This document shows positions 6,541 to 32,000 of a stretch of DNA of 32,000 nucleotides, in pieces. The translations under genes were made by a program, and so were the position numbers. Source of the stretch: Xanthomonas campestris pv. campestris str. ATCC 33913. Its GTDB lineage: Bacteria; Pseudomonadota; Gammaproteobacteria; Xanthomonadales; Xanthomonadaceae. The first letter of the stretch is position 1. Each line of letters opens with the position of its first letter. The DNA is taken from the NCBI RefSeq assembly GCF_000007145.1, contig NC_003902.1, positions 3,506,497 to 3,538,496 of the forward strand, written 5' to 3'. The notes beneath the pieces are model-generated. The model saw only the letters and a list, made by a program, of their open reading frames with translations, had not been told where the DNA came from and did not search any database.

Positions 6541-7124
6541 TCACGGCCAACGTGTGCGCCCTCGCCGGCTGCGCCTGCATGTGGCGCAGCGGTGATGGTC
6601 CGCAAATAGCTTAGCTCACCGCTGCGGCGTGGCGCTTTTCAAGCTCGATAGCGGCAGTTACGCGACACAAGCGCCCGCAACACCGGGCCGGTAGCGCGGT
6701 TGACAAAAGGCACGTAAGTCCAGAATCCCGCTATAGGGATCACATCGCCGGGGCGCGGCTGCGATGTCTGAAAACGCCAACAAGAAAGGGCGTACCAACA
6801 GGCGCTCTGTTCGTATGTGCCAGCCGCAGCTGAACGCGTTTTTTCGGTCACGCATACATCGCTGGCACACGCCTGTTTGCACACAGAAACCAGTTAAAAA
6901 CAAGCACCGAACGAGGCGCGGGAGTGCTTGCGCAGATGGCGCCAGCTGGGTACGCTGCCGCGGTCGAAAGAGAGCAGGCCGGATGGTAGCCCGGCCGCCG
7001 CTAGATAGGCGGCATCTTAGCCATCAGGTACCCACGACATCCGCAGCCGGCGTTGCCAGTAACGCAGATGTGTGGGTGGGAGTGACACATCCCGCATGGC
7101 GCATCTGCTCGACCAAGGATCCCC

Positions 7125-7475
7125 GTGATGATCGTCACTGCTCCCGCTCACTCCTTCCGGATGCGCTCCGTGCGCGCTAGTGCCAACACCGGCCGTTCTG
7201 CGTCGTCCATGCGCGATCCAGGCGTGCATGCCGACGCCGACTGCACGCATCTGCATTGGCACCGCGTGTGGGTGGACGCGCTGCAAATCTGGCAACGCGA
7301 TGTCCGGCTAGCCGATGCGCGCATGTGCATGCTCGCGGTGTGGCGGTCTGCACCACATTGGGAATGGGAGGCGATCGACCCTGCGCACGATCGCCATCTG
7401 GCCGGTGGTTGTAGCGCAACCCAAGCCGACGCCCTGGCATGTGCAGAAGACTGGATGCATGCCGCGCAGAGATGA
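7125..7475 (+). CDS. hypothetical Trp-rich protein (116 aa), weak call
   Basis: AAGGA lies upstream of the ATG and G/C third positions are moderately enriched. No family recognised, and the surrounding 1.1 kb has no better ORF. Confidence 0.25.
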   Translation: MMIVTAPAHSFRMRSVRASANTGRSASSMRDPGVHADADCTHLHWHRVWVDALQIWQRDVRLADARMCMLAVWRSAPHWEWEAIDPAHDRHLAGGCSATQADALACAEDWMHAAQR

Positions 7476-7637
7476 TGGCTGCGCACGTTGCATGCTGTGT
7501 CCTCTCGCACCCGCCGCCTGCGACGGCTACGTGGTACGCCACGGCTGCACCACGCGAGTGGCGCGCATCGCGCAGGGTCACCCCCGCGCATTGCTGGCCA
7601 ACTAGCCAGCAGCAAAGCTGCAAAGCGCGCCCGGAAT

Positions 7638-8063
7638 CTAGGTCGAATACAACCCAGGAACATACCGCTCCATCAACGACTGCGGAAACAATGGCGGCGT
7701 AAACCCGTAGCGGGCGTACAGGCCATGCGCATCACTGGTGGCCAGGCTGAAGCGGCGTAGCCCCTGCAGATCGGGATGCGCCATGACCGCATCCATCAGC
7801 GCCTTGCTGTAGCCGCGGCCGCGGTGCTCCGGCAGCACGAACACATCGCCCAGGTACGCAAAGGTCGCATAGTCGGAAATCACCCTGGCGAACGCGACTT
7901 GCCGGCCATCGACAAACCCGCCGAAGCACAACGAATGATCGATCGCGCGCTGCACAAGGGCGAGGGGAATGTCCTTGGCCCAATCGGTGTCTTGTGACAG
8001 CGTGCGATGGATCAAGCCGATATCGAGCAGGGAGTTGTCGGTGCTGACGTGCACGTGCGGCAT
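7638..8063 (-). CDS. GNAT family N-acetyltransferase
   Basis: Internal ATG at 8063 (MPHVHVSTD...) with AGGA upstream. Acetyl-CoA binding motif VLPEHRGRGYSKALM is present. The upstream 39 codons of the track ORF look non-coding. Confidence 0.8.
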   Translation of the reverse strand: MPHVHVSTDNSLLDIGLIHRTLSQDTDWAKDIPLALVQRAIDHSLCFGGFVDGRQVAFARVISDYATFAYLGDVFVLPEHRGRGYSKALMDAVMAHPDLQGLRRFSLATSDAHGLYARYGFTPPLFPQSLMERYVPGLYST

Positions 8064-8228
8064 GTGAAGTGTCCTGGCAAAGGGCGTGGAGCGACGAACA
8101 AGCGACGTGCGCATCCGCCGTGTGCGTGCGGACGGTGAGCAGAATCCGGCACGGCCAGCTTGCCACTCAGGCTGCTTCAAACCATCCGCACCAACGGACG
8201 ATCGCGCACTTGCTTGCGTTCGCCGCGC

Positions 8229-8855
8229 TTAACCCGAGGTCGTATGCTGCGGCAGCAGGGGCGCTACGCACAACACCAGCATGAACACGGCGATGCAGCC
8301 ATCCAGTACGCGCCAGGCGCGCGGGTCACGGAACACCGGTTGCAGCAGACGCGCGCCATAGCCCAGCGCGCAGAACCAGGTTATGCTGGCAAGGCAGGCG
8401 CCGAGTGCAAATGCCCAGCGCAGGACGCCGGCATGGCGTGCGGAGAGGCTGCCCAGCAGCACCATGGTGTCCAGATACACGTGCGGGTTGAGGAAGGTGA
8501 AAGCCAGACAGGTCAGCGCCGCCTGCTGCCAGCGCTGATCCTCGCGTTCGGCCGGTGCCAGTGCGCCCTGCCCGCGCCAGGCGCGTTGGGCGGCCATCGC
8601 CCCGTACACCGCCAGGAACGCCGCACCCGCATAACGGAACACCTGCAGGATCTGCCGACAGTGCTGCACCACCGCGCCAATGCCGGCGACGCCGGCCAGG
8701 ATCAAGGTGATGTCACCGAAGGCGCAGATGGCCACGACCAGGCCGACATGCCGCCGCTGCAGCCCCTGGCGCAGGACGAAGGCGTTTTGCGCCCCGATGG
8801 CGATGATGAGCCCGGCGCTGGCAATGAAGCCGGAAAGTGCTGCGTTGAAGACCAT
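8229..8855 (-). CDS. argO: LysE/ArgO family basic amino acid exporter
   Basis: 208 aa from ATG 8855 (MVFNAALSG...). Carries motifs GAQNAFV and LNPHVYLDT, matching remembered E. coli ArgO. Divergent from a LysR/ArgP-type regulator. Confidence 0.85.
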   Translation of the reverse strand: MVFNAALSGFIASAGLIIAIGAQNAFVLRQGLQRRHVGLVVAICAFGDITLILAGVAGIGAVVQHCRQILQVFRYAGAAFLAVYGAMAAQRAWRGQGALAPAEREDQRWQQAALTCLAFTFLNPHVYLDTMVLLGSLSARHAGVLRWAFALGACLASITWFCALGYGARLLQPVFRDPRAWRVLDGCIAVFMLVLCVAPLLPQHTTSG

Positions 8856-13710: not shown

Positions 13711-14061
13711 TCAGGCTTTCTGCAACAGCGCCAATGCGTCCTGCAGGTCGCGGAAACGAAAGGGCTTCTGCACCCCGTGCCGGTGACGGAACTTCTCTGG
13801 AATCCCGCTGGAGGCATAGCCGGTCACGAAGATATACGGCACGCCGCGCGCATCCAGTTCTTCGGCAATCGGGAAGGACATCGTGCCGCCCAGATTGACG
13901 TCCAGCACTGCCATATCCAGATTGCCCTTTTTCACCGCCTCAAGCGCGGTGCTGACATCGCCCACGGTCCCGGCCACTTCATAGCCCAGTTCGGCCAGGC
14001 AATCTTCGAGCAACATGGCCACCAGCGACTCGTCTTCTACCACCAGTACGCGCGCACTCAT
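13711..14061 (-). CDS. single-domain response regulator
   Basis: 116 aa from ATG 14061 (MSARVLVVEDE...). Receiver residues are present: VEDE, AVLDVNL, FVTGY, QKPF. Its start overlaps the kinase stop (ATGA at 14058-14061). Confidence 0.85.
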   Translation of the reverse strand: MSARVLVVEDESLVAMLLEDCLAELGYEVAGTVGDVSTALEAVKKGNLDMAVLDVNLGGTMSFPIAEELDARGVPYIFVTGYASSGIPEKFRHRHGVQKPFRFRDLQDALALLQKA

Positions 14062-15068
14062 GCTGCCAGCTCCGCGGTCGCAGCCGGCAACGCCAACGAC
14101 ACGCGGTAGGACACACCCGCCGTATCGAAGACCCAGGACACATCGCCATTGAGATCGTGCTTCAGGCCCCGCTCCAGCAATCGCGAGCCGAAGCCCTTGC
14201 GTTGCGGCGGCTGCACTTCCGGGCCACCACTTTCCTGCCACAACAACTCCAGGCGATTCTCGCCCTCGCGCATGGTGCACTCCCAGGCAATCCGTACGCG
14301 CCCTTCCGCGGACGACAGCGCACCGTGCTTCACCGCATTGGTGCACAACTCATGCAAGGCCATCGCCAGCGCCAGTGCGCGGCGCGGGTCCAGCCGGCAG
14401 GAACTGCCATGCAGCTCGAACCGCTGCCCCTGGTGTGACTCGCACAGCTCCACCGCATCGCGTGTGAGTTCGGCGATATCGGCGCTCACCCAATTCTCGC
14501 GGGTCAAGGTGTTATGCGCACTGGAGAGCGCCATGAGGCGCGCGTCGATCTTTTCATTGGCATCGTCCAGGCTTTCGGCGTTCTTCAGCGACTGCCGCGC
14601 CAGGGACTGCACCATCACCAGGGAGTTTTTCACCCGGTGATTGAGCTCATTGATCAGCAGCTGCAGATGCTGCTCATGCTGCTTGCGTTCGGTGACGTCA
14701 CGGGTGGCACCGGCGATGGCCTCAACGCGGCCATCGGGCCCGAACACCGGCGTAAAAATGTAGTCATACACCCGCACGCCCTTGCTGATGTGCGGGAACG
14801 GCACTTCGCCACGCAATGGCTGGCCGGTGGCAATGACGCGCTCGATTTCCTCATCGTGCATCGCCGCGTGCCACGGCTCGTAGCCGATCTCCAGACAGGT
14901 CTTGCCGGACGCCTGCTCCCACTCCATGCCCCACATCGCCAACAGCGCTTCATTGGCGTAGATGAAACGGTGCTGGGTATCGAACACGTACAGGAGATCG
15001 GGAGTGGCCTGCAAAAGCGCTTTGTAGATGCGCGATTTCGCGGCGTCTTCTTGCTGCTCGGCTATCAC
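14058..15068 (-). CDS. PAS-domain HWE/HisKA_2 family sensor histidine kinase
   Basis: 336 aa with a GTG start. N-terminal PAS domain (LLYVFD...DVTERK), H-box LINELNHRVKNSL and an HWE-type ATPase region (HELCTNAVKHGA, GFGSRLL). Cytoplasmic, with no TM segment. Confidence 0.85.
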   Translation of the reverse strand: MIAEQQEDAAKSRIYKALLQATPDLLYVFDTQHRFIYANEALLAMWGMEWEQASGKTCLEIGYEPWHAAMHDEEIERVIATGQPLRGEVPFPHISKGVRVYDYIFTPVFGPDGRVEAIAGATRDVTERKQHEQHLQLLINELNHRVKNSLVMVQSLARQSLKNAESLDDANEKIDARLMALSSAHNTLTRENWVSADIAELTRDAVELCESHQGQRFELHGSSCRLDPRRALALAMALHELCTNAVKHGALSSAEGRVRIAWECTMREGENRLELLWQESGGPEVQPPQRKGFGSRLLERGLKHDLNGDVSWVFDTAGVSYRVSLALPAATAELAA

Positions 15069-17357: not shown

Positions 17358-17395
17358 TTAGTAATTTTGCTAACTTGCCTGGCCGTCTCTATCTA
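17358..17395 (+). promoter_or_regulatory. candidate SOS (LexA) box overlapping a sigma70-like promoter of umuDC
   Basis: TTAGTAATTTTGCTAA (17358-17373) fits the Xanthomonas/Xylella-type TTAG-N6-TACTA motif with one mismatch. TTGCTA-N17-TATCTA (17367-17395) lies about 30 nt upstream of the umuD ATG. Confidence 0.45.
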
Positions 17396-17423
17396 TGAGA
17401 CTTTGTGCCTCGAGAGTTGCGCC

Positions 17424-17903
17424 ATGTTGGCCCTACCTCCCCCTCACACCTACGCCCGCCTGCTGGGACCGGCCTGTCTCGATCCGGTCCCGCTCTGCCT
17501 GCCCGTCAGCGCGCTCCGGATCCAGCTCGGCTTCCCTTCACCCGCCGAGGATTTCCAAGACGACGAGCTCGATCTTAACCGGGTACTGATACGCAACCCG
17601 CCAGCCACTTTTCTATACAGGGCAGAGGGTTGGAGCATGATCTTGGCCGGCGTCTGCGATGGGGACATCCTGGTTGTGGACCGCTCGGTGCGTCCGATCC
17701 AGGGCGACATGGTGCTGGCCATCTGGGATGGCAATCAGCCGGTCTGCAAGATTCTTCAGGTCGCCGTCGACCACATCGAGCTCCATAGCCGAAGCCCACA
17801 TTGCGCGCCCATCGTGCTGGCGCCAGGCACAGAGGTTGAGGTCTTCGCCGTCGTGGGCGTAGTCCGCCAAGTCACCCGCGCGCATTCCCGCGCCGGCCGC
17901 TGA
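17424..17903 (+). CDS. umuD: UmuD-like S24 peptidase (translesion polymerase V accessory subunit)
   Basis: 159 aa from ATG 17424. GFPSPAEDF cleavage-region motif, Ser nucleophile in EGWSM and Lys in VCKIL. Its stop overlaps the umuC start (TGATG). Confidence 0.85.
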   Translation: MLALPPPHTYARLLGPACLDPVPLCLPVSALRIQLGFPSPAEDFQDDELDLNRVLIRNPPATFLYRAEGWSMILAGVCDGDILVVDRSVRPIQGDMVLAIWDGNQPVCKILQVAVDHIELHSRSPHCAPIVLAPGTEVEVFAVVGVVRQVTRAHSRAGR

Positions 17904-19189
17904 TGTTCGCGCTGATCGACGGCAATAACTTCTACGCTAGCTGCGAGCGCGTGTTCCAGCCCGAGCTGCGTGGCAGGCCGTTGGTCGTGCTCAGCAACAA
18001 CGATGGCTGCGCTATTGCTCGATCGGACGAGGCCAAAGCCCTAGGTGTCACGATGGGCCAGCCGATCCACAAGGTGCCACCGCAGATCCGTCGCCGGCTA
18101 GCGCTGCGCTCCGCAAATTTCGGTCTCTACGGCGACATCGCTTCTCGCATTGGCGTCATCCTGCGTCAGGCCGCGCCACGCGTGGAGGTGTATTCGATCG
18201 ACGAGTCGTTCCTCGACCTGGCCGGCATCCGCGATTGCCGGCAGCTGGCGGTCGACCTGCGCGAGCGAGTTCACCAATGGACGGGCATCCCCAACTGCAT
18301 TGGCATCGCGCCGACCAAGACCTTGGCCAAGCTGGCCAACCGGGTCGCCAAGGATGCAGCGCGTAAGCCGGGCAGCTACCCAGCTAGTCTGGCCGGCGTC
18401 TGTGACCTGGCTGCGCTCAGCGCCAGTGAGCTCGATGCGGTGCTGCGAGCCACGGCGGTTGGCGACCTCTGGGGCGTTGGCAGGCGCTGGGGCGCGAGGC
18501 TGCAGGCACGCGGCGTCTTTACGGCAGCCGATCTGCGAGACGCCGCTGCAGACGACTTGCTAGCGGAGTTCGGTGTGGTCATGGCGCGCACGCAACGGGA
18601 GTTGCAGGGCCATGCATGCCTGCAGCTGGAGGAAGTCGAGCCCGACCGTCAGCAGATCATGGTCAGCCGGTCGTTCGGGACCTGGGTGACCGATCCACAA
18701 GATATGGCGGAGGCGCTGGCAACTTTTGCCATGCGCGCCACCGAGAAGCTGCGCGCACGCGGGCTGACCACATGCGCCATTGGCATCTTTGCCGAGACGG
18801 ATTCGTTCAAGCCCGGTGTGCCGCAGCACAACCCATCACGCACCGCGCCACTTGCCTCGGCTACATCCGACAGCCGCGTGGTGCTCACGGTTGTGCGCCG
18901 GCTGCTCCAGGGCTTCATGCGCGATGGCTTCACCTACAAGAAGGCCGGCGTGTGCCTAATGGATCTCGCCGCGCCCGAGGATCTGCAGGGCGACCTCTTC
19001 ACCCCGGCACGCATAGGCGACGACAAGCTGATGAGCACCCTGGATGCCATCAACCGGCGGTTCGGTCGCGGCACGGCCGGGCTGGGTGCAAGCGGCTGGC
19101 AGAAGTCCCCCGAATGGGCATCGCGGCAAGATCTGCTATCGGGCCGCTTCACCACATCGCTAGCTGACCTCCCTCGCGCCTCCTGCTAG
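17903..19189 (+). CDS. umuC: UmuC-like Y-family DNA polymerase
   Basis: 428 aa. N-terminus MFALIDGNNFYASCERVF, plus LSNNDGC and YSIDESFLDL, typical of UmuC/ImpB. Confidence 0.9.
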   Translation: MFALIDGNNFYASCERVFQPELRGRPLVVLSNNDGCAIARSDEAKALGVTMGQPIHKVPPQIRRRLALRSANFGLYGDIASRIGVILRQAAPRVEVYSIDESFLDLAGIRDCRQLAVDLRERVHQWTGIPNCIGIAPTKTLAKLANRVAKDAARKPGSYPASLAGVCDLAALSASELDAVLRATAVGDLWGVGRRWGARLQARGVFTAADLRDAAADDLLAEFGVVMARTQRELQGHACLQLEEVEPDRQQIMVSRSFGTWVTDPQDMAEALATFAMRATEKLRARGLTTCAIGIFAETDSFKPGVPQHNPSRTAPLASATSDSRVVLTVVRRLLQGFMRDGFTYKKAGVCLMDLAAPEDLQGDLFTPARIGDDKLMSTLDAINRRFGRGTAGLGASGWQKSPEWASRQDLLSGRFTTSLADLPRASC

Positions 19190-19849: not shown

Positions 19850-19955
19850 TGCGCGCGCGCAGCAGCCTGAGTGCCTCCTCCCGGCTGTCGCAGCCGGCTA
19901 GACTGGAATGGGAGACGCTTGCAGGCGATACTTCCCTCATGGAGAGAAAGAGCCA

Positions 19956-21134
19956 ATGAAGGGCGAACAAGTTGTAGGTGTACAACCCTCAGTGATGCGT
20001 TGGGCACGCGAAAGCATCGGCATGTCGATAGCCGATGTCGCAGCACGCCTTAAGAAAGGTGAGGGGGAAGTTGCAGCATGGGAATCCGGGGCGGAGGCCC
20101 CCACCTACCCACAGCTAGAAAGGCTCGCGTACGAGGTCTATAAACGGCCGCTAGCTGTGTTCTTTCTCCCGGCGCCGCCCGCTGAAGCTTCTCCTCGTCA
20201 AGAGTTCCGTACGCTCCCAGCGGAAGAGCTCGCAAATTTGTCCCGCGATACCTACCTACATCTTCGAAAAGCCCGCGCGTATCAGCTAGGCCTCGAAGAG
20301 CTGTACGCAGGCGTAAACCCTGCTGCAATAAAGGCGTGGCGTGCTGTTCAACTCAGCACTGGCGATGACGTCGTACGCAAAGCAGCCGCTATCCGCCTTA
20401 TGTTGGGCATCACCTCAGAGGTCCAGGCTGGCTGGGGAACTGATGATGAGGCGCTACGCTCATGGAGGGCAGCCGTCGAACGCGTCGGCCCATTCGTTTT
20501 CAAAGAAAGCTTTAAGCAGGAAACCATCTCTGGATTTTGCCTAAGAGATAGCGAATTCCCTGTTATTTACCTCAACAACAGCACCACGAAGACCCGACAG
20601 ATCTTCTCGCTGTTGCATGAGTTCGCGCATGTGCTATTCGATGTCAACGGAATTTCTAAGTTCGACATTAGCTATGCGAATGAGCTCCCTCAACGCGAAC
20701 GTGCCATCGAAATTTTTTGCAATGCGATCGCGGCCGAGGTTTTAATACCGGGTGCAGAATTTGATGCAGCCACGACTGACCTCGCAATCATTGCGGATTA
20801 TGCGCCTGACATATATTTCTCTCGACTCGCCCGACGCTTTGGGGTGAGTCGGGAAGTGGTGCTGCGTCGCTTTCTGGATAGAGGACGTGCTACGCGTCAG
20901 TTCTATGAGGAAAAAGCTGACGAATGGAATCAGCAACGTCAAAAAGAATCTAGTGGCGGCGGGAGTTGGTACGCAAATCAAGGCTCATACTTGAGCGATG
21001 GGATGCTCAGAGAGGTGTTTGGCCGCCGTCTACGCGGCCAAATTTCGCCAGAAAAGGCTGCTGATTACCTTGGAGTAAAGCCTGGCACATTGCCTGGTCT
21101 GGAGGAATTGGTCCTGCATAGGAAGCGCAACTGA
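19956..21134 (+). CDS. XRE-family HTH fused to an ImmA/IrrE (COG2856, M78-like) zinc metallopeptidase domain
   Basis: 392 aa from ATG 19956, with GGAGA upstream. N-terminal HTH (IGMSIADVAARLKKGEGEVAAWESG), HExxH motif HEFAH (nt 20616-20630) and a downstream AAEVLIP. GC is lower than the flanks (hand counts of 55% and 45% in two 60-nt samples). Confidence 0.8.
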   Translation: MKGEQVVGVQPSVMRWARESIGMSIADVAARLKKGEGEVAAWESGAEAPTYPQLERLAYEVYKRPLAVFFLPAPPAEASPRQEFRTLPAEELANLSRDTYLHLRKARAYQLGLEELYAGVNPAAIKAWRAVQLSTGDDVVRKAAAIRLMLGITSEVQAGWGTDDEALRSWRAAVERVGPFVFKESFKQETISGFCLRDSEFPVIYLNNSTTKTRQIFSLLHEFAHVLFDVNGISKFDISYANELPQRERAIEIFCNAIAAEVLIPGAEFDAATTDLAIIADYAPDIYFSRLARRFGVSREVVLRRFLDRGRATRQFYEEKADEWNQQRQKESSGGGSWYANQGSYLSDGMLREVFGRRLRGQISPEKAADYLGVKPGTLPGLEELVLHRKRN

Positions 21135-21601
21135 TGTACGTGTTCGACACTGGGCCGTTTAGCCGTCTTAAGCATTACTATCCCGCTGTTTTTCATAGCT
21201 TCTGGGCACACATGGATGCCCTCGTTCACGGTGGCTACCTTCTATCCACGCGGGAGGTTAAGCGTGAGCTAGACAACGGCGAGCCGAATGCGGTGGTTAG
21301 TGCCTGGATAGGTCAGCATGCCGGACTTTTCAGCATGCCTAGTGCAGGAGAGATGCAGCTGGTTGCGCAGATACTGGCGATACCGCACTTTCAGTCGATC
21401 ATCGGCGAACGTCAGCGCCTGAAAGGAACCCCAGTCGCCGATCCATTTGTGATTGCTGCCGCTCAAGTAAGAGGCTTCGCTGTAGTCACGACCGAGGTGT
21501 ACAAGCCACAGGCGGCAAAAGTTCCCATCATCTGCCAACACTTCAATGTGCGATGTATTGACCTTGAGCAGTTCATGGCCGAACAGAAGATGACCTACTA
21601 G
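21134..21601 (+). CDS. DUF4411-like PIN-fold protein (putative nuclease/toxin partner)
   Basis: 155 aa. Its start overlaps the upstream stop (TGATG). The pattern MYVFD...FW...S..EVKREL...VADPFVIAAA...VVTTEV...KVPIICQHF..RCI matches my memory of DUF4411/PIN-like proteins, including the conserved acidic residues. Confidence 0.7.
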   Translation: MYVFDTGPFSRLKHYYPAVFHSFWAHMDALVHGGYLLSTREVKRELDNGEPNAVVSAWIGQHAGLFSMPSAGEMQLVAQILAIPHFQSIIGERQRLKGTPVADPFVIAAAQVRGFAVVTTEVYKPQAAKVPIICQHFNVRCIDLEQFMAEQKMTY

Positions 21602-21632: not shown

Positions 21633-22337
21633 CTAAGCCAATCGGGTCCGTGCGACATCTGAGTAGTGACTGGTCAACTCGACCCCAGTCCATCCGTACC
21701 CTTCAAGCTCAGCAGCGACCAGAGTCGTACCGCTGCCAGCAAACGGGTCAAGGATCCGGCCACCTGCTTCACAGATCCGCACCAGCTGCCTCATCAACTC
21801 GGTAGGTTTGCCAGTCAGGTGATGTTTGTCTGCCTTGCGCACCGACTCGCGGATAACACCAGGCAGCACCGGCGCACGACGATCCAGCGGCATGTTGCCC
21901 TTGCTGCCCCACACGATGTATTCGGCCTGGTTGCGGAACCTGCCCAACTGCGGCCGCACGCCCTCGGTCTTGTCCCAGACAGTGATGCCGCGCCAGGTGA
22001 AGCCGGCGATCTGCAGCGCGTCAGTGGTCAGCGGCAGCTGCCGCCAGTCGGTAAACAGCAGCACCGGCGCGCCGTCCTTGAGCACGCGCGCGCACTCGGA
22101 TAACCACAGGTGCATCCACTTCAAGTGTGAGCGTTGGTCGCGCTCGTCGCCGACAAAGTCGGCGTGCAGTTGTGCGCCGCCGCCCTGGACGTATTTCTGC
22201 GACGGTGGCTTGGCCCGCGCGGCCGCATGCAGGCCACCGCTGGCATACGGCGGATCAGTGATCAGCGCGTCGAACGAATTCGCTTCGAGCGTGGGCAGGA
22301 TGGTCAGGGCGTCGCCCTGCAGGAGCTGGTTTTTCAT
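21633..22337 (-). CDS. DNA methyltransferase, N6-adenine/N4-cytosine type (beta class)
   Basis: 234 aa. Motif IV DPPY (LITDPPYASGG) lies N-terminal to motif I (LDPFAGSGTT). No cognate nuclease gene is adjacent. Confidence 0.85.
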   Translation of the reverse strand: MKNQLLQGDALTILPTLEANSFDALITDPPYASGGLHAAARAKPPSQKYVQGGGAQLHADFVGDERDQRSHLKWMHLWLSECARVLKDGAPVLLFTDWRQLPLTTDALQIAGFTWRGITVWDKTEGVRPQLGRFRNQAEYIVWGSKGNMPLDRRAPVLPGVIRESVRKADKHHLTGKPTELMRQLVRICEAGGRILDPFAGSGTTLVAAELEGYGWTGVELTSHYSDVARTRLA

Positions 22338-25320: not shown

Positions 25321-25462
25321 GCCGACCAGGGTGCAGCCCACCTCTTAATCCCGACAGTTCAATGACGCGTAATCGCCTGGTTTACACGGTGATTGCGTTG
25401 CTGCGTTGTGCGTCGCGTTTGACCATGGGTCATCGCAAACGCATCCAGCGCAGAGGACACCC

Positions 25463-29497: not shown

Positions 29498-30135
29498 TGT
29501 TCACCGATACCCAGCTCGCCTCGATCATGCAGTGTTCGCCGCAACGCGCTCAGCGCTGGCACGGCCCACTGCTCGCCGCCGCCAACCGCTTTGGCATCAC
29601 CACCAAGCGCCGCGCTGCGCACTGGCTCGGTCAGGTCGGCCACGAAAGCCTGAGCCTGTCGCGCATGGAAGAAGGGCTGACCTACACCACCAGCGCTCGG
29701 CTGTTGGAAGTGTTCGGCACGCGCATCACACCGGCCCAGGCGCCCAAGTTCCTGCGCAATCCGGTCGGCCTGGCCAACTTCGTCTACGCCGACCGCCTGG
29801 GCAACGGCAACACCGCCAGCGGCGACGGTCACCGCTACCGGGGCCGTGGCCCGATGCAGCACACGTTCCGTGGCAACTACCGCCGCATCGGTGAGCTGAT
29901 TGGCCTGCCGGTGGAAGAACAGCCGGATCTGCTGCTGCAGGTTGAGCCAAGCGCACTGGGAGCGGCGGCGTACTGGCACGACAACGGCCTCAACGTGCTG
30001 GCCGATACGGGCGACGTGCTTGGCCTGGGCCGCAAGATCAACTTGGGCAACGTGCGTGCCAAGCGCTTGCCCGAAGGCCACAGCGATCGCGTCACGCGCA
30101 CGCAGCGCGCCCTGCAGATCCTGGGCGTGAGCTGA
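29497..30135 (+). CDS. endolysin, glycoside hydrolase family 19 (chitinase-like) type
   Basis: 212 aa. HWLGQVGHESLSL, YRGRGPMQHTFRGNY and AAAYWHDNGLN are typical of GH19 phage lysins. Confidence 0.8.
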   Translation: MFTDTQLASIMQCSPQRAQRWHGPLLAAANRFGITTKRRAAHWLGQVGHESLSLSRMEEGLTYTTSARLLEVFGTRITPAQAPKFLRNPVGLANFVYADRLGNGNTASGDGHRYRGRGPMQHTFRGNYRRIGELIGLPVEEQPDLLLQVEPSALGAAAYWHDNGLNVLADTGDVLGLGRKINLGNVRAKRLPEGHSDRVTRTQRALQILGVS

Positions 30136-30623
30136 TGGTCACGCGCCTGATCATCCTGCTGGCGCTGATTGCAGCGCTCGTCGGTAGCTGCGTGTGGCAG
30201 GAGCAGCGCGTCAGCGCCGCGCAGAAAGACCGCGATGCGGCGCTGCAGGCCAAGCGCCTGGCCGAAGCTCAACGCGACAGCGCCAAAGGCTCCACCACCG
30301 TCGTGACGCAGTACGTCGACCGCGTGCAGATCGTGCGCGAAGCCGGCGCCACTATCACCCGTGAGATCCCGATCTATGTCACCCAGAAAGCCGATGCTGC
30401 TTGCGCTATCCCTGCTGGTTTTGTGCGGCTGCATGACGCCGCCGCCACGGGCAACCCTGCCGGGCCGCCCACCGGAGATCCTGATGCGCCGACCGCCGGC
30501 ATTACGCTCTCTGCCATCGCTGGCACCGTCGCAGACAACTACACCAGCTGCCATGCAACCGCCGCGCAGCTGAGCGCGCTGCAGGACTGGATCGACCTGC
30601 AGGTACCGGAGCCGGCGCCATGA
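30135..30623 (+). CDS. i-spanin (Rz/LysB-like)
   Basis: 162 aa. N-terminal TM anchor (LIILLALIAALVGSCVW) followed by a charged coiled-coil-like periplasmic region. Lies immediately after the endolysin gene. Confidence 0.75.
   Translation: MVTRLIILLALIAALVGSCVWQEQRVSAAQKDRDAALQAKRLAEAQRDSAKGSTTVVTQYVDRVQIVREAGATITREIPIYVTQKADAACAIPAGFVRLHDAAATGNPAGPPTGDPDAPTAGITLSAIAGTVADNYTSCHATAAQLSALQDWIDLQVPEPAP
30394..30573 (+). CDS. o-spanin (Rz1/LysC-like) lipoprotein embedded in the +1 frame of the i-spanin gene
   Basis: 59 aa from ATG 30394. Lipobox MLLALSLLVLCGC followed by a Pro-rich mature part. Entirely inside 30135..30623. Confidence 0.7.
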   Translation: MLLALSLLVLCGCMTPPPRATLPGRPPEILMRRPPALRSLPSLAPSQTTTPAAMQPPRS

Positions 30624-31039
30624 TCAAGCCCGCCAGCCTGCGCGCGCATCTGGTCGCGGCCTTGCCGGATCTGGCACGCGATGCCGACCGGCTGCTGGTG
30701 TTTATCGACGCCGGTAGCCTGGTCAGCACTTTCCAGCCGGGACTGTCGTTCGAGTACCAGTACACGCTCAATCTGATCTTGACCGACTACGCCGGCCACC
30801 CGGACAGCGTGATGCTGCCGCTGCTGGAATGGGTGCAGGTCAATCAGTCCGAGCTGCTGTCCAATCCCGCGCGCCGTGGCGACATCGCCTTCGAGGCTGA
30901 CATCCTCGCCAACGATGCCGTGGATCTGTCGATCAAGTTGCCGCTGACCGAGCGCGTTGTCGTGACTGCGAAGGATGGCGTCGGCTACGACATCACGCAT
31001 GCGCCCGAGCCAGTGATCGATACGACATGGATGAGCTGA
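30620..31039 (+). CDS. R: tail completion protein (P2 gpR family)
   Basis: 139 aa. MIKPASLRAHL..., LSFEYQYTLNLILTDYAG and LPLTERV parallel P2 gpR. ATGA overlap with the Rz stop. Confidence 0.85.
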   Translation: MIKPASLRAHLVAALPDLARDADRLLVFIDAGSLVSTFQPGLSFEYQYTLNLILTDYAGHPDSVMLPLLEWVQVNQSELLSNPARRGDIAFEADILANDAVDLSIKLPLTERVVVTAKDGVGYDITHAPEPVIDTTWMS

Positions 31040-31485
31040 CCGCACTGGAGAACTGGGCCGCACCGCTGCTTGCGCGCCTGCAGCCCGGTGAACGCCGCAC
31101 GCTGGCACGCAAGATCGGAACGGAACTGCGGCGCTCGCAGAGCCAACGTATCGGCAAGCAGCAAGCGCCTGATGGCACGCCATACGCACCGCGCAAGCAG
31201 CAGCTGCGACAGAAATCCGGGCGCGTCAAACGCGCGAAGATGTTTGCCAAGCTGCGGCAAGCCAAGTTCTTCAAGGTCAGCGCAACTCCCAACGCTGTGA
31301 GCGTAGGATTCGTGGGGCGCGTGTCCCGCATTGCCCGTGTGCATCAAGAGGGGCTAACGGAACGTATCCGGGCGGGCGGACCCAAAGCGCGCTATGCCAA
31401 ACGTGGATTGATTGGAATAAGCAAGCACGACAGTAAAGAAATTGGAAATCTAATAATTTCAGCTCTTGGTGATTATCGTCTATGA
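31027..31485 (+). CDS. S: tail completion / virion morphogenesis protein (P2 gpS family)
   Basis: 152 aa. Overlaps the end of R as in P2. The last 25-30 codons are AT-rich, unlike the rest of the gene. Confidence 0.75.
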   Translation: MDELTALENWAAPLLARLQPGERRTLARKIGTELRRSQSQRIGKQQAPDGTPYAPRKQQLRQKSGRVKRAKMFAKLRQAKFFKVSATPNAVSVGFVGRVSRIARVHQEGLTERIRAGGPKARYAKRGLIGISKHDSKEIGNLIISALGDYRL

Positions 31486-31524
31486 TCGGGGTGCATACTT
31501 CACCACTCACGCAAAGGAATAGAA

Positions 31525-31737
31525 ATGAGTCTCGAATTCAAGACGGCGATGATCTACGGGGATCTAAGTTCAGATAGCGCCTCCGAGCAATATCCGGAAG
31601 TCACGGCTTGCACAGATTGTATCGAAAAAGATAGCAAGCGCGCCGAGGATCAAGAAATCGTTCAAATCACTGGCGATTACGACTCTTCGTATGGTGAGGA
31701 ATGCCATTTTTGCGATACACCCGCCGAGCCAGATTAA
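31525..31737 (+). CDS. small, highly acidic CxxC...CxxC (zinc-ribbon-like) protein, function unknown
   Basis: 70 aa. AAGGAA lies 5 nt before the ATG. Cys at 29, 32, 60 and 63. By my count 18 D/E versus 4 K/R. Sits in the AT-rich segment. Confidence 0.6.
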   Translation: MSLEFKTAMIYGDLSSDSASEQYPEVTACTDCIEKDSKRAEDQEIVQITGDYDSSYGEECHFCDTPAEPD

Positions 31738-31771
31738 TTCATTTTCAATAACTTAATGAAATTGAATTAAA

Positions 31772-32000
31772 ATGCCAAGCAAAGAAGAGACCCCGCAACC
31801 TAAACAAGGCGCGCATAATGCGGTGCCTTGGTATAGACAAAAAATAACTTTCTTGTCATTGCTTGCCCCGGTTTTTATTTTCCTCGGCTGGATCCTCCTA
31901 AGTGGACCAACTGCGCTTCAGAACTCGCGAATACTTCCAGATGAAGTAAATAAAACATGGCATGCTTTCAGTAGCTGGCTTCACGAGGATGAGGAATGGA
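31772..32000 (+). CDS. 5' part of an unknown membrane-protein gene, truncated by the window edge
   Basis: ATG 31772, open to position 32000 (MPSKEETPQPKQGAHNAVPWYRQKITFLSLLAPVFIFLGWILLSG...). One predicted TM helix. AT-rich. Not in the ORF track because it has no stop. Confidence 0.45.
   Translation, partial: MPSKEETPQPKQGAHNAVPWYRQKITFLSLLAPVFIFLGWILLSGPTALQNSRILPDEVNKTWHAFSSWLHEDEEW

Follow-up and report, generated by a model that had tools for sequence, protein, structure and literature searches.

What is the AT-rich DNA that follows the tail completion gene S in a prophage of Xanthomonas campestris pv. campestris str. ATCC 33913, and why does it seem to begin inside that gene? The locus lies at the right end of a 32,000-nucleotide (nt) stretch of contig NC_003902.1 (positions 3,506,497 to 3,538,496), referred to below as the window, where the G+C content (GC) drops abruptly before the S stop codon. 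The analysis indicates that this DNA is very probably a two-gene, low-GC moron cassette, placed in a known cargo slot between genes S and J of a Smp131-like Xanthomonas prophage. To judge from sequence alignments, the cassette has three parts which move and diverge together: a substituted 3' end for S, covering about its last 42 codons, a gene for a 70-residue protein with four cysteines (Cys4) and a gene for a 228-residue membrane protein.

GC and sequence identity change inside gene S

The features at the left side of the locus are listed here; GC3 is the GC at third codon positions.

30620..31039, + strand: tail completion gene R, high-GC backbone gene and conserved left anchor of the locus (Pfam P2_Phage_GpR, E = 7e-48)
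31027-31485, + strand: tail completion gene S, whole open reading frame (ORF; Pfam Phage_tail_S)
31027..31356, + strand: S codons 1-110, backbone part, GC 0.64, GC3 0.72, 85-98% amino acid identity across relatives
31357..31393, + strand: left recombination junction zone in S, codons about 111-123 (similarity collapse at about 31357, GC change point at 31393)
31357..31485, + strand: S codons 111-152 and stop, cargo-linked low-GC replacement C-terminus, GC3 0.33, still S-like (Pfam match to residue 147)

The GC is 65.0% at 31321-31380, 46.7% at 31381-31440, 36.7% at 31441-31500 and 33.3% at 31741-31800, reproducing exactly four hand counts made in the original prediction. Over the whole window, it is 63.1% for positions 1-31394 and 43.9% for positions 31395-32000. 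In a fine-scale profile the fall is visible between 31360 and 31420, and a two-state maximum-likelihood fit places the change point at 31393 (31395 in the original prediction). This position is S codon 123, 30 codons ahead of the stop, in a reading frame which is uninterrupted, as had been described. Block 31381-32700, completed with the extension described below, has a GC of 0.445, against 0.631 +/- 0.038 (minimum 0.525) for windows of 1300 nt elsewhere in the region. No other stretch of the region has so low a GC, which lies about 5 standard deviations under the mean.

S overlaps R and is an end-to-end match to Pfam Phage_tail_S (residues 3-147 on profile positions 2-147 of 148, E = 2.5e-44). 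It was compared, by an ungapped sliding procedure, with its counterparts in 11 Xanthomonas relatives, whose R and J are 93-98% and 91-95% identical, respectively, to the copies analyzed here. DNA identity stays at 80-95% until S nt about 330 (window about 31357), drops to about 55% for 60 nt and is no better than chance past nt about 400.

The last 42 or so S residues vary according to the cargo that follows them. Their identity is 83-88% in copies of the X. fragariae type (cargo 81-87% identical), 48-50% in those of the X. cannabis type (cargo about 50% identical) and 25-43% in prophages carrying any other cargo. Five prophages of the latter kind have a common "backbone-type" S tail (...RVLLGL...DR...LLNHLG), with a higher GC3. 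Because the S C-terminus co-varies with the cargo, the recombination junction lies inside S, and on these alignments the exchange takes in the 3' end of the gene. The original prediction, which had placed a junction within S and had the foreign segment bring its own S C-terminus, is thus supported by both the identity collapse and the tracking of the cargo by the S tail. The ratio of nonsynonymous to synonymous substitution rates (dN/dS) of the S C-terminal part is 0.5-0.8 relative to close copies.

Two relatives have a longer S, of 177 amino acids in L024 (6408-6941) and 155 in L021 (1325-1792), where the junction took away the usual stop; the S C-terminus therefore tolerates extra residues. 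In L023 (about 6980-7090), a hexanucleotide tandem repeat is found at the S/cargo junction, read as KYKYKY... or IFIFIF... in the ORF translations.

Extension of the window and position of the prophage among P2-like phages

The window was extended with the contig of GCA_040192675.1 (locus L001), found by exact-protein look-up. The overlap of L001 with the window, 10,974 nt, shows no difference, and the window coordinate equals the L001 coordinate plus 21026. Its gene order is S, the 70-amino-acid gene, the 228-amino-acid gene, J, I, a Gly-rich fibre protein, a 75-amino-acid protein, V, W, sheath, tube, E, tape measure and U. The cargo genes are the following.

31525..31737, + strand: cargo gene 1, acidic protein of 70 amino acids with two CxxC pairs, zinc-ribbon-like (ORF)
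31772..32000, + strand: cargo gene 2, the first 76 of 228 codons in the window; the full gene reaches extended coordinate 32458 (L001 11432)

Both ORFs correspond to the acidic Cys4 protein and to the membrane protein continuing past 32000 of the original prediction. A full baseplate J gene begins 158 nt past the 228-amino-acid gene, and GC recovers at extended coordinate about 32696, about 80 nt into J. The low-GC block thus ends about 460-700 nt beyond the window edge, contains two ORFs only, and the cassette measures about 1.15-1.3 kb. The block had been taken for an incomplete system and perhaps the larger novelty of the region; beyond the edge, the same two ORFs are simply completed and J comes next. 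The opposite outcome named at that time, an immediate return to baseplate genes with the ORFs being conserved tail components, is found in its first half, since J follows, and not in its second, as the ORFs are not tail components.

The prophage is P2-like (Peduoviridae), with a Smp131-like gene order. Pfam searches on L001 and L008 identified Phage_portal, Terminase_6, Phage_GPO_N, Phage_cap_P2, Phage_term_smal, Phage_GPL, Phage_tail_X, P2_Phage_GpR, Phage_tail_S, Baseplate_J, Tail_P2_I, Phage_base_V, GPW_gp25, sheath, tube, GpE and GpU. The nearest relatives of R are found in Xanthomonas (97-98% in X. hortorum), and among described phages Stenotrophomonas phage Smp131 (Simpcentumvirus, Peduoviridae, NC_023588) comes nearest, annotated in the order R-S-J-I-fibre-hyp-V-W-FI-FII. 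In both, J-I-fibre directly follow S and V-W are displaced downstream, a rearrangement relative to P2 already noted for Smp131 (PMC3931495); in Pseudomonas and other relatives, V-W come after S, at backbone GC. As the Smp131 lineage has J after S, the fitting comparison for the locus is "S then J", and not the P2 order of S, orf30 and V which the original prediction had expected.

Besides gene order, the prophage shares with Smp131 47-55% amino acid identity in R, S, J and I, and a common dyad upstream of J. It differs in the S-J gap, which is empty in Smp131 (86 nt, GC 0.63); the low-GC block is absent there, in agreement with the moron-like insertion originally proposed. The two DNAs show about 67% identity over 37% of the compared stretch, which covers R to J only. 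The criterion used for the genus Simpcentumvirus being about 70% or more nucleotide identity over the genome, this limited similarity suggests that the prophage belongs to a related but probably distinct genus.

The S-J interval holds different cargo in related prophages

In the 11 Xanthomonas relatives the S-J interval ranges from 643 to 2173 nt, with a GC of 0.43-0.54, and contains different ORFs, on either strand. The cargo identified includes:

L014 (X. hortorum NBC5721), 6865-7977, - strand: YopJ-family acetyltransferase (Pfam E = 2e-51)
L016 and L022: Amidase_3 proteins
L017: T5orf172 protein
L015, L018 and L023, - strand: secreted Cys-rich DPBB-like proteins of about 147 amino acids (DPBB_1 E = 2e-5, under the Pfam cut-off)
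L019 (X. bromi LMG947), 7085-8845: complete retron type I-C RT-Toprim (PADLOC E = 4e-217)

In addition, a gene matching the PADLOC candidate defence family PDC-S15 (E = 3e-81) is found in the same slot in the X. cannabis type (L049). The DPBB_1 match is of the RlpA/expansin/PNP-like kind, and these small proteins could be plant-interaction factors. The cassette shows these marks of a moron: it is absent in Smp131, its place is taken by other cargo in the 11 relatives, and its GC is distinct from that of the flanks.

These data also bear on the proposal that low GC is intrinsic to phage genes which are conserved (accessory tail genes, for instance, or a regulatory region rich in AT) and does not mark foreign DNA. 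The J promoter region and the first 40 or so J codons do have a somewhat lower GC in all relatives. However, the block is wholly missing from Smp131, relatives with near-identical flanks hold unrelated genes in its place, on either strand, and neither protein belongs to a PHROGs family. The proposal is effectively refuted.

The slot itself is not new, contrary to the original statement that an insertion after S is not at a described P2 hotspot. The passage of PMC3091744 dealing with the subject, citing Nilsson and Haggard-Ljungquist, names the TO region, the Z/fun region and the orf30 locus, which follows S, as three common sites of horizontally acquired genes in P2-like phages. Moreover, the effector gene xopJ4 lies between gpS and gpJ of a P2-like prophage of X. 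euvesicatoria pv. perforans (PMC11573517, PMC12864420). Like the P2 orf30 region, the interval studied here begins where the O-to-S late operon ends, directly downstream of S, and holds non-essential genes varying between related phages. It differs in having J, not V, downstream (V-W having moved in the Smp131 lineage), in a junction that takes in about 42 codons of S, and in a cargo unrelated to orf30.

With the xopJ4 prophage it shares the gpS-gpJ slot, a Xanthomonas P2-like host element and the logic of lysogenic conversion, a YopJ-family gene being present in relative L014; here, however, the cargo consists of two uncharacterised small proteins and no type III effector. The xopJ4 publications describe one cargo, and not the slot as a multi-cargo hotspot also accommodating a retron and a PDC-S15 gene. 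Surveys of enterobacterial P2-like hotspots stress the gpA-portal and Z/fun slots, and one slot given only as downstream of gpL in the late genes (bioRxiv 10.1101/2024.10.15.618418; 10.64898/2026.02.27.708500); Xanthomonas is not mentioned in the second of these preprints, dated 2026. The defence hotspots of E. coli P2-like prophages (Rousset et al. 2022, PMC9122126; bioRxiv 10.64898/2026.02.27.708500) are similar in being fixed slots between core genes with low-GC cargo swapped fast, and also in the kind of cargo, given the retron RT-Toprim and PDC-S15 genes of the Xanthomonas S-J slot. They are other slots, however, in Enterobacteria, whereas the Xanthomonas slot mixes defence and virulence cargo. 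The locus is, in type, an ordinary moron in an already published slot and changes little in this respect; the breadth of the Xanthomonas cargo, and the S C-terminus swapped along with it, may be new.

A conserved dyad marks the right boundary

25368..25386, + strand: dyad CGTA-N11-TACA in the divergent P/O promoter gap, putative late-promoter activator site
31479..31495, + strand: short block TCTATGATCGGGGTGCA across the S stop, shared by each of the three diverged cassette copies (alignment)
31734..31770, no strand assigned: AT-rich palindrome of 18+18 nt between the cargo genes (repeat search)

P2 late promoters carry dyad-symmetric Ogr/Delta sites, the P2 site being TGT-N12-ACA. In a gapped alignment, a dyad of the form GTA-N11-(T/G)AC was found 81-86 nt upstream of the J start in 12 of 15 relatives, Smp131 included. 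In the prophage it lies at extended coordinates about 32530-32546 (L001 11504-11520), to the right of the cargo and outside the window; apart from it, the region upstream of J is unalignable among relatives. An ungapped comparison had placed the right boundary exactly at the J start codon, and this placement was dropped once the gapped alignment revealed the dyad. A further copy is found 64 nt upstream of V (L001 14474-14490). On the + strand of the 20.5-kb L001 the pattern has no more than four matches, of which three precede O, J and V. These three sites can be written (C/T)GTA-N11-TAC(A), with half-sites one base further apart than in the P2 site. The dyad is probably the binding site of the late-gene activator and, as such, would mark operon boundaries. 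Its conservation upstream of J places the right boundary of the exchanged DNA at the late promoter.

The cargo slot would accordingly be the spacer separating two operons, with the end of O-to-S on one side and the J promoter on the other, which would explain its tolerance of insertions in both orientations. Another P2-like element, of lower GC, may have donated the cassette through recombination, either homologous or illegitimate, in which the left crossover fell within S and the right one a little ahead of the J late promoter. The junctions were searched for direct or inverted repeats in the flanks, the signature of transposon or site-specific insertion, and only short, chance-like matches were obtained. 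As repeats of the transposon or integrase type were not found, we infer that recombination between P2-like elements is the likeliest route.

The TCTATGATCGGGGTGCA block includes TATGAT at 31481-31486, which was not called by the consensus promoter scan; that it acts as a -10 element for the cargo genes is a speculative suggestion. The palindrome at 31734-31770 was rejected as a functional element, being unconserved in the 87%- and 50%-identity copies of the cassette (absent in L054 and L049), and is probably incidental. A search of the low-GC block against Rfam gave no match.

The two cargo proteins

The cargo genes are small, run in the same direction and are separated by 34 nt. Together with the S tail, they are collinear in the S-J slot in every Xanthomonas copy, down to 48-50% identity. 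Their low dN/dS (0.04-0.05 for the 70-amino-acid gene relative to diverged copies, as constrained as core S; 0.30 for the 228-amino-acid gene) points to purifying selection on the two and indicates, at the sequence level, that both ORFs are real genes.

The 70-amino-acid protein has an isoelectric point (pI) of 4.05, with 18 D+E and 4 K+R, and cysteines at residues 29, 32, 60 and 63, that is two CxxC pairs 27 residues apart. No match was found in Pfam, PHROGs, PADLOC, NCBIfam or PDB sequences, and homologs occur only in the Xanthomonas copies of the cassette. Its Cys4 arrangement made it a candidate for an Ogr/Delta-type activator. Ogr is basic; the candidate was rejected, given the acidic pI and the lack of any Pfam, NCBIfam or PHROG match up to E = 1.

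The acidity, the Cys4 motif and the very strong purifying selection would be compatible with this protein being itself the payload, an anti-defence or host-takeover factor (a nucleic-acid mimic, or an inhibitor of RNA polymerase or of a nuclease) expressed by late read-through from the O-to-S operon, with the membrane protein as an unrelated passenger. The gene is indeed co-oriented and directly downstream of the late operon, with no terminator detected between. On the other hand, the protein has no homology to known anti-defence proteins, and in the collected data its gene is never found apart from the 228-amino-acid gene, so that this explanation appears very improbable.

The 228-amino-acid protein has one hydrophobic segment, at residues about 25-45. 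A word-indexed search retrieved only nine clusters, those with a named source being all from Xanthomonas. A full profile search at E <= 1e-3 raised the family to 202 representatives, defined as clusters at 50% identity. Members share a basic N-terminus with "PWYKK-W", one transmembrane (TM) helix and a beta-rich domain with two invariant cysteines; further motifs are "NGPTxLxN...LP" and "SWYYED...W-G-WS...PEGY". Pfam, PHROGs, PADLOC and NCBIfam gave no match for the protein, and PADLOC-DB v2 none up to E = 1 for either cargo protein. None of 38 diverse family members matched Pfam.

Outside Xanthomonas, homologs of the 228-amino-acid protein are found without the Cys4 partner, on contigs of about 49-59% GC, which is consistent with a donor of lower GC. 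This distribution bears on the possibility that the cassette is a toxin-antitoxin or abortive-infection pair, with the membrane protein as effector and the acidic zinc-ribbon protein as antitoxin or sensor. Small size, common direction, the 34-nt spacing and linkage in all Xanthomonas copies would fit such a pair, as would the far stronger constraint on the small gene (dN/dS 0.05 vs 0.30). Yet obligate co-occurrence is not observed: homologs standing alone indicate that the membrane protein needs no antidote. PADLOC gave no match, and the small upstream gene has no similarity to known antitoxins. A pair of this type is considered quite improbable.

The neighbourhood of distant relatives was analyzed by a locus search run with a 9-sequence alignment. 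The homolog in L052 has AbiTii, NACHT, a transposase and an integrase as neighbours, that in L064, a viral contig, adjoins portal and terminase genes, i.e. the P2 TO-hotspot position, and that in L074 lies in an island with BrxC/PglY-like, DUF4007 and PAPS-reductase genes. These contexts make a defence association of the family suggestive, not strong. In L052 (5545-6100) an rve-family transposase inserted next to the homolog, P0009, seems to have cost this protein the N-terminal TM segment, its first 45 or so residues being unalignable with the family.

A structural model was obtained with AlphaFold2 from a 38-sequence alignment (pLDDT 88.9, pTM 0.75). It consists of a TM helix that continues into a helical extension, a beta domain of up-and-down topology (residues about 78-190) and, at the C-terminus, another helix. 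A cytoplasmic N-terminus and a periplasmic beta-barrel are suggested by the positive-inside rule, together with the conserved cysteine pair. The top Foldseek matches of the model are all calycin-type barrels (FABP, RBP, avidin and the PvdP barrel), which provide a lead on the fold class only. A weaker model gave nothing significant by Foldseek against PDB and BFVD, and sequence searches of PDB with the cargo proteins reached chance level only (a Lon-like protease at E = 1.2; ovomucoid or nibrin at E = 0.1-1).

Possible role of the cassette

The 228-amino-acid protein may tentatively be regarded as a prophage-encoded superinfection-exclusion or defence factor acting at the envelope. It would be anchored in the inner membrane, with the N-terminus in the cytoplasm and a disulfide-stabilised, calycin-like beta-barrel exposed to the periplasm, while the 70-amino-acid zinc-ribbon protein would be a cytoplasmic, lineage-specific accessory or regulator. 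Membrane-anchored superinfection-exclusion proteins of prophages include T4 Imm/Sp, P22 SieA and the lactococcal Sie2009. The protein resembles them in being a small, prophage-encoded moron product with one N-terminal TM anchor and an extracytoplasmic domain (predicted here); it differs in having no sequence or significant fold similarity to them.

Several observations weigh against this interpretation of the cassette and of its product. GC remains lowish for about 80 nt into J in all relatives, which makes the right boundary less sharp than the left. A promoter and terminator scan of the block, based on E. coli-type consensus sequences, performed no better than on shuffled sequence, and thus lends no support to expression of the cassette on its own in the lysogen, as is typical of morons. 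The search of PDB by Foldseek with the model of pLDDT 88.9 gave nothing significant (best E = 0.013, TM-scores mostly 0.2-0.45), and an exclusion or defence function finds no match in PADLOC, PHROGs, Pfam or NCBIfam. The homologs in L072, L073 and L075 are located among ordinary housekeeping genes. Finally, as the S-J slot also holds virulence-type cargo (YopJ/xopJ4), location alone is no sign of defence.

The last point leads to a different function, in which the cassette would be a lysogenic-conversion or virulence moron, whose periplasmic calycin-like barrel binds a hydrophobic ligand of host or plant, or modifies the envelope, helping the lysogen in planta. Companions in the slot would agree with it, namely the YopJ-family effector of L014, xopJ4 in X. 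euvesicatoria pv. perforans (PMC11573517) and the secreted DPBB-like proteins of L015, L018 and L023, the latter under the Pfam cut-off; the weak fold matches are, moreover, all ligand-binding calycins, VtrC included. These matches are not significant, however, and no evidence of a secretion or type III signal was found. Most of the 202 representatives come from environmental metagenomes and from non-Xanthomonas contigs of about 50% GC, so that the family is not specific to plant pathogens. A virulence function is therefore judged unlikely.

A wider form of the superinfection-exclusion interpretation can be proposed, although it must be called doubtful. The family of at least 202 clusters would consist of single-gene, inner-membrane-anchored periplasmic beta-barrels blocking phage at the envelope, with the acidic zinc-ribbon partner recruited in Xanthomonas. 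At the same time, the S-J slot would be a general exchange point for anti-phage genes (retron, PDC-S15, the cassette pair) and plant-virulence effectors (YopJ/xopJ4), swapped together with a replaceable S C-terminus.

Other features of the prophage region

A second low-GC cargo block (GC about 0.52-0.58) is found just left of the portal gene, in the position of the P2 "TO-region". The features noted in the rest of the region are the following.

14058-15068, - strand: PAS-HWE histidine kinase
17367-19189, + strand: umuD-like (Peptidase_S24) and umuC-like (IMS/IMS_C/DUF4113) translesion-polymerase pair, upstream of the prophage late region
19908-21601: the second low-GC block, with a 408-amino-acid HTH_3 + Peptidase_M78 (ImmA/IrrE-like) gene followed at once by a 155-amino-acid DUF4411 gene
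21633-22337, - strand: N6_N4 DNA methyltransferase, overlapping a small Zn_ribbon_Com ORF (L001 1229-1438), between the DUF4411 and portal genes
30135-30623: Rz-like spanin gene (phrog_4952, E = 5e-71)
30361-30573: ORF nested in the Rz-like gene, in the +1 frame, with a lipoprotein-like signal (...LLVLCGC...)

The HTH_3/Peptidase_M78 and DUF4411 genes form a module of a kind often met in defence or toxin-antitoxin contexts. The methyltransferase and Zn_ribbon_Com genes are arranged as in the mom/com system of Mu, and the nested ORF gives the typical Rz/Rz1 arrangement.

Implications

The 228-amino-acid protein represents a family that numbers over 200 clusters and lacks any annotation; with its confidently predicted fold, it would be a cheap candidate for phage-exclusion assays. 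The exchanged unit takes in the last 42 or so codons of an essential tail completion gene, which means that the S C-terminus tolerates wholesale replacement. The S-J slot is not only the home of xopJ4: it is a multi-cargo hotspot, holding both defence (retron I-C, PDC-S15) and virulence genes, and this mixture bears on the co-evolution of plant-pathogen races and phage resistance.

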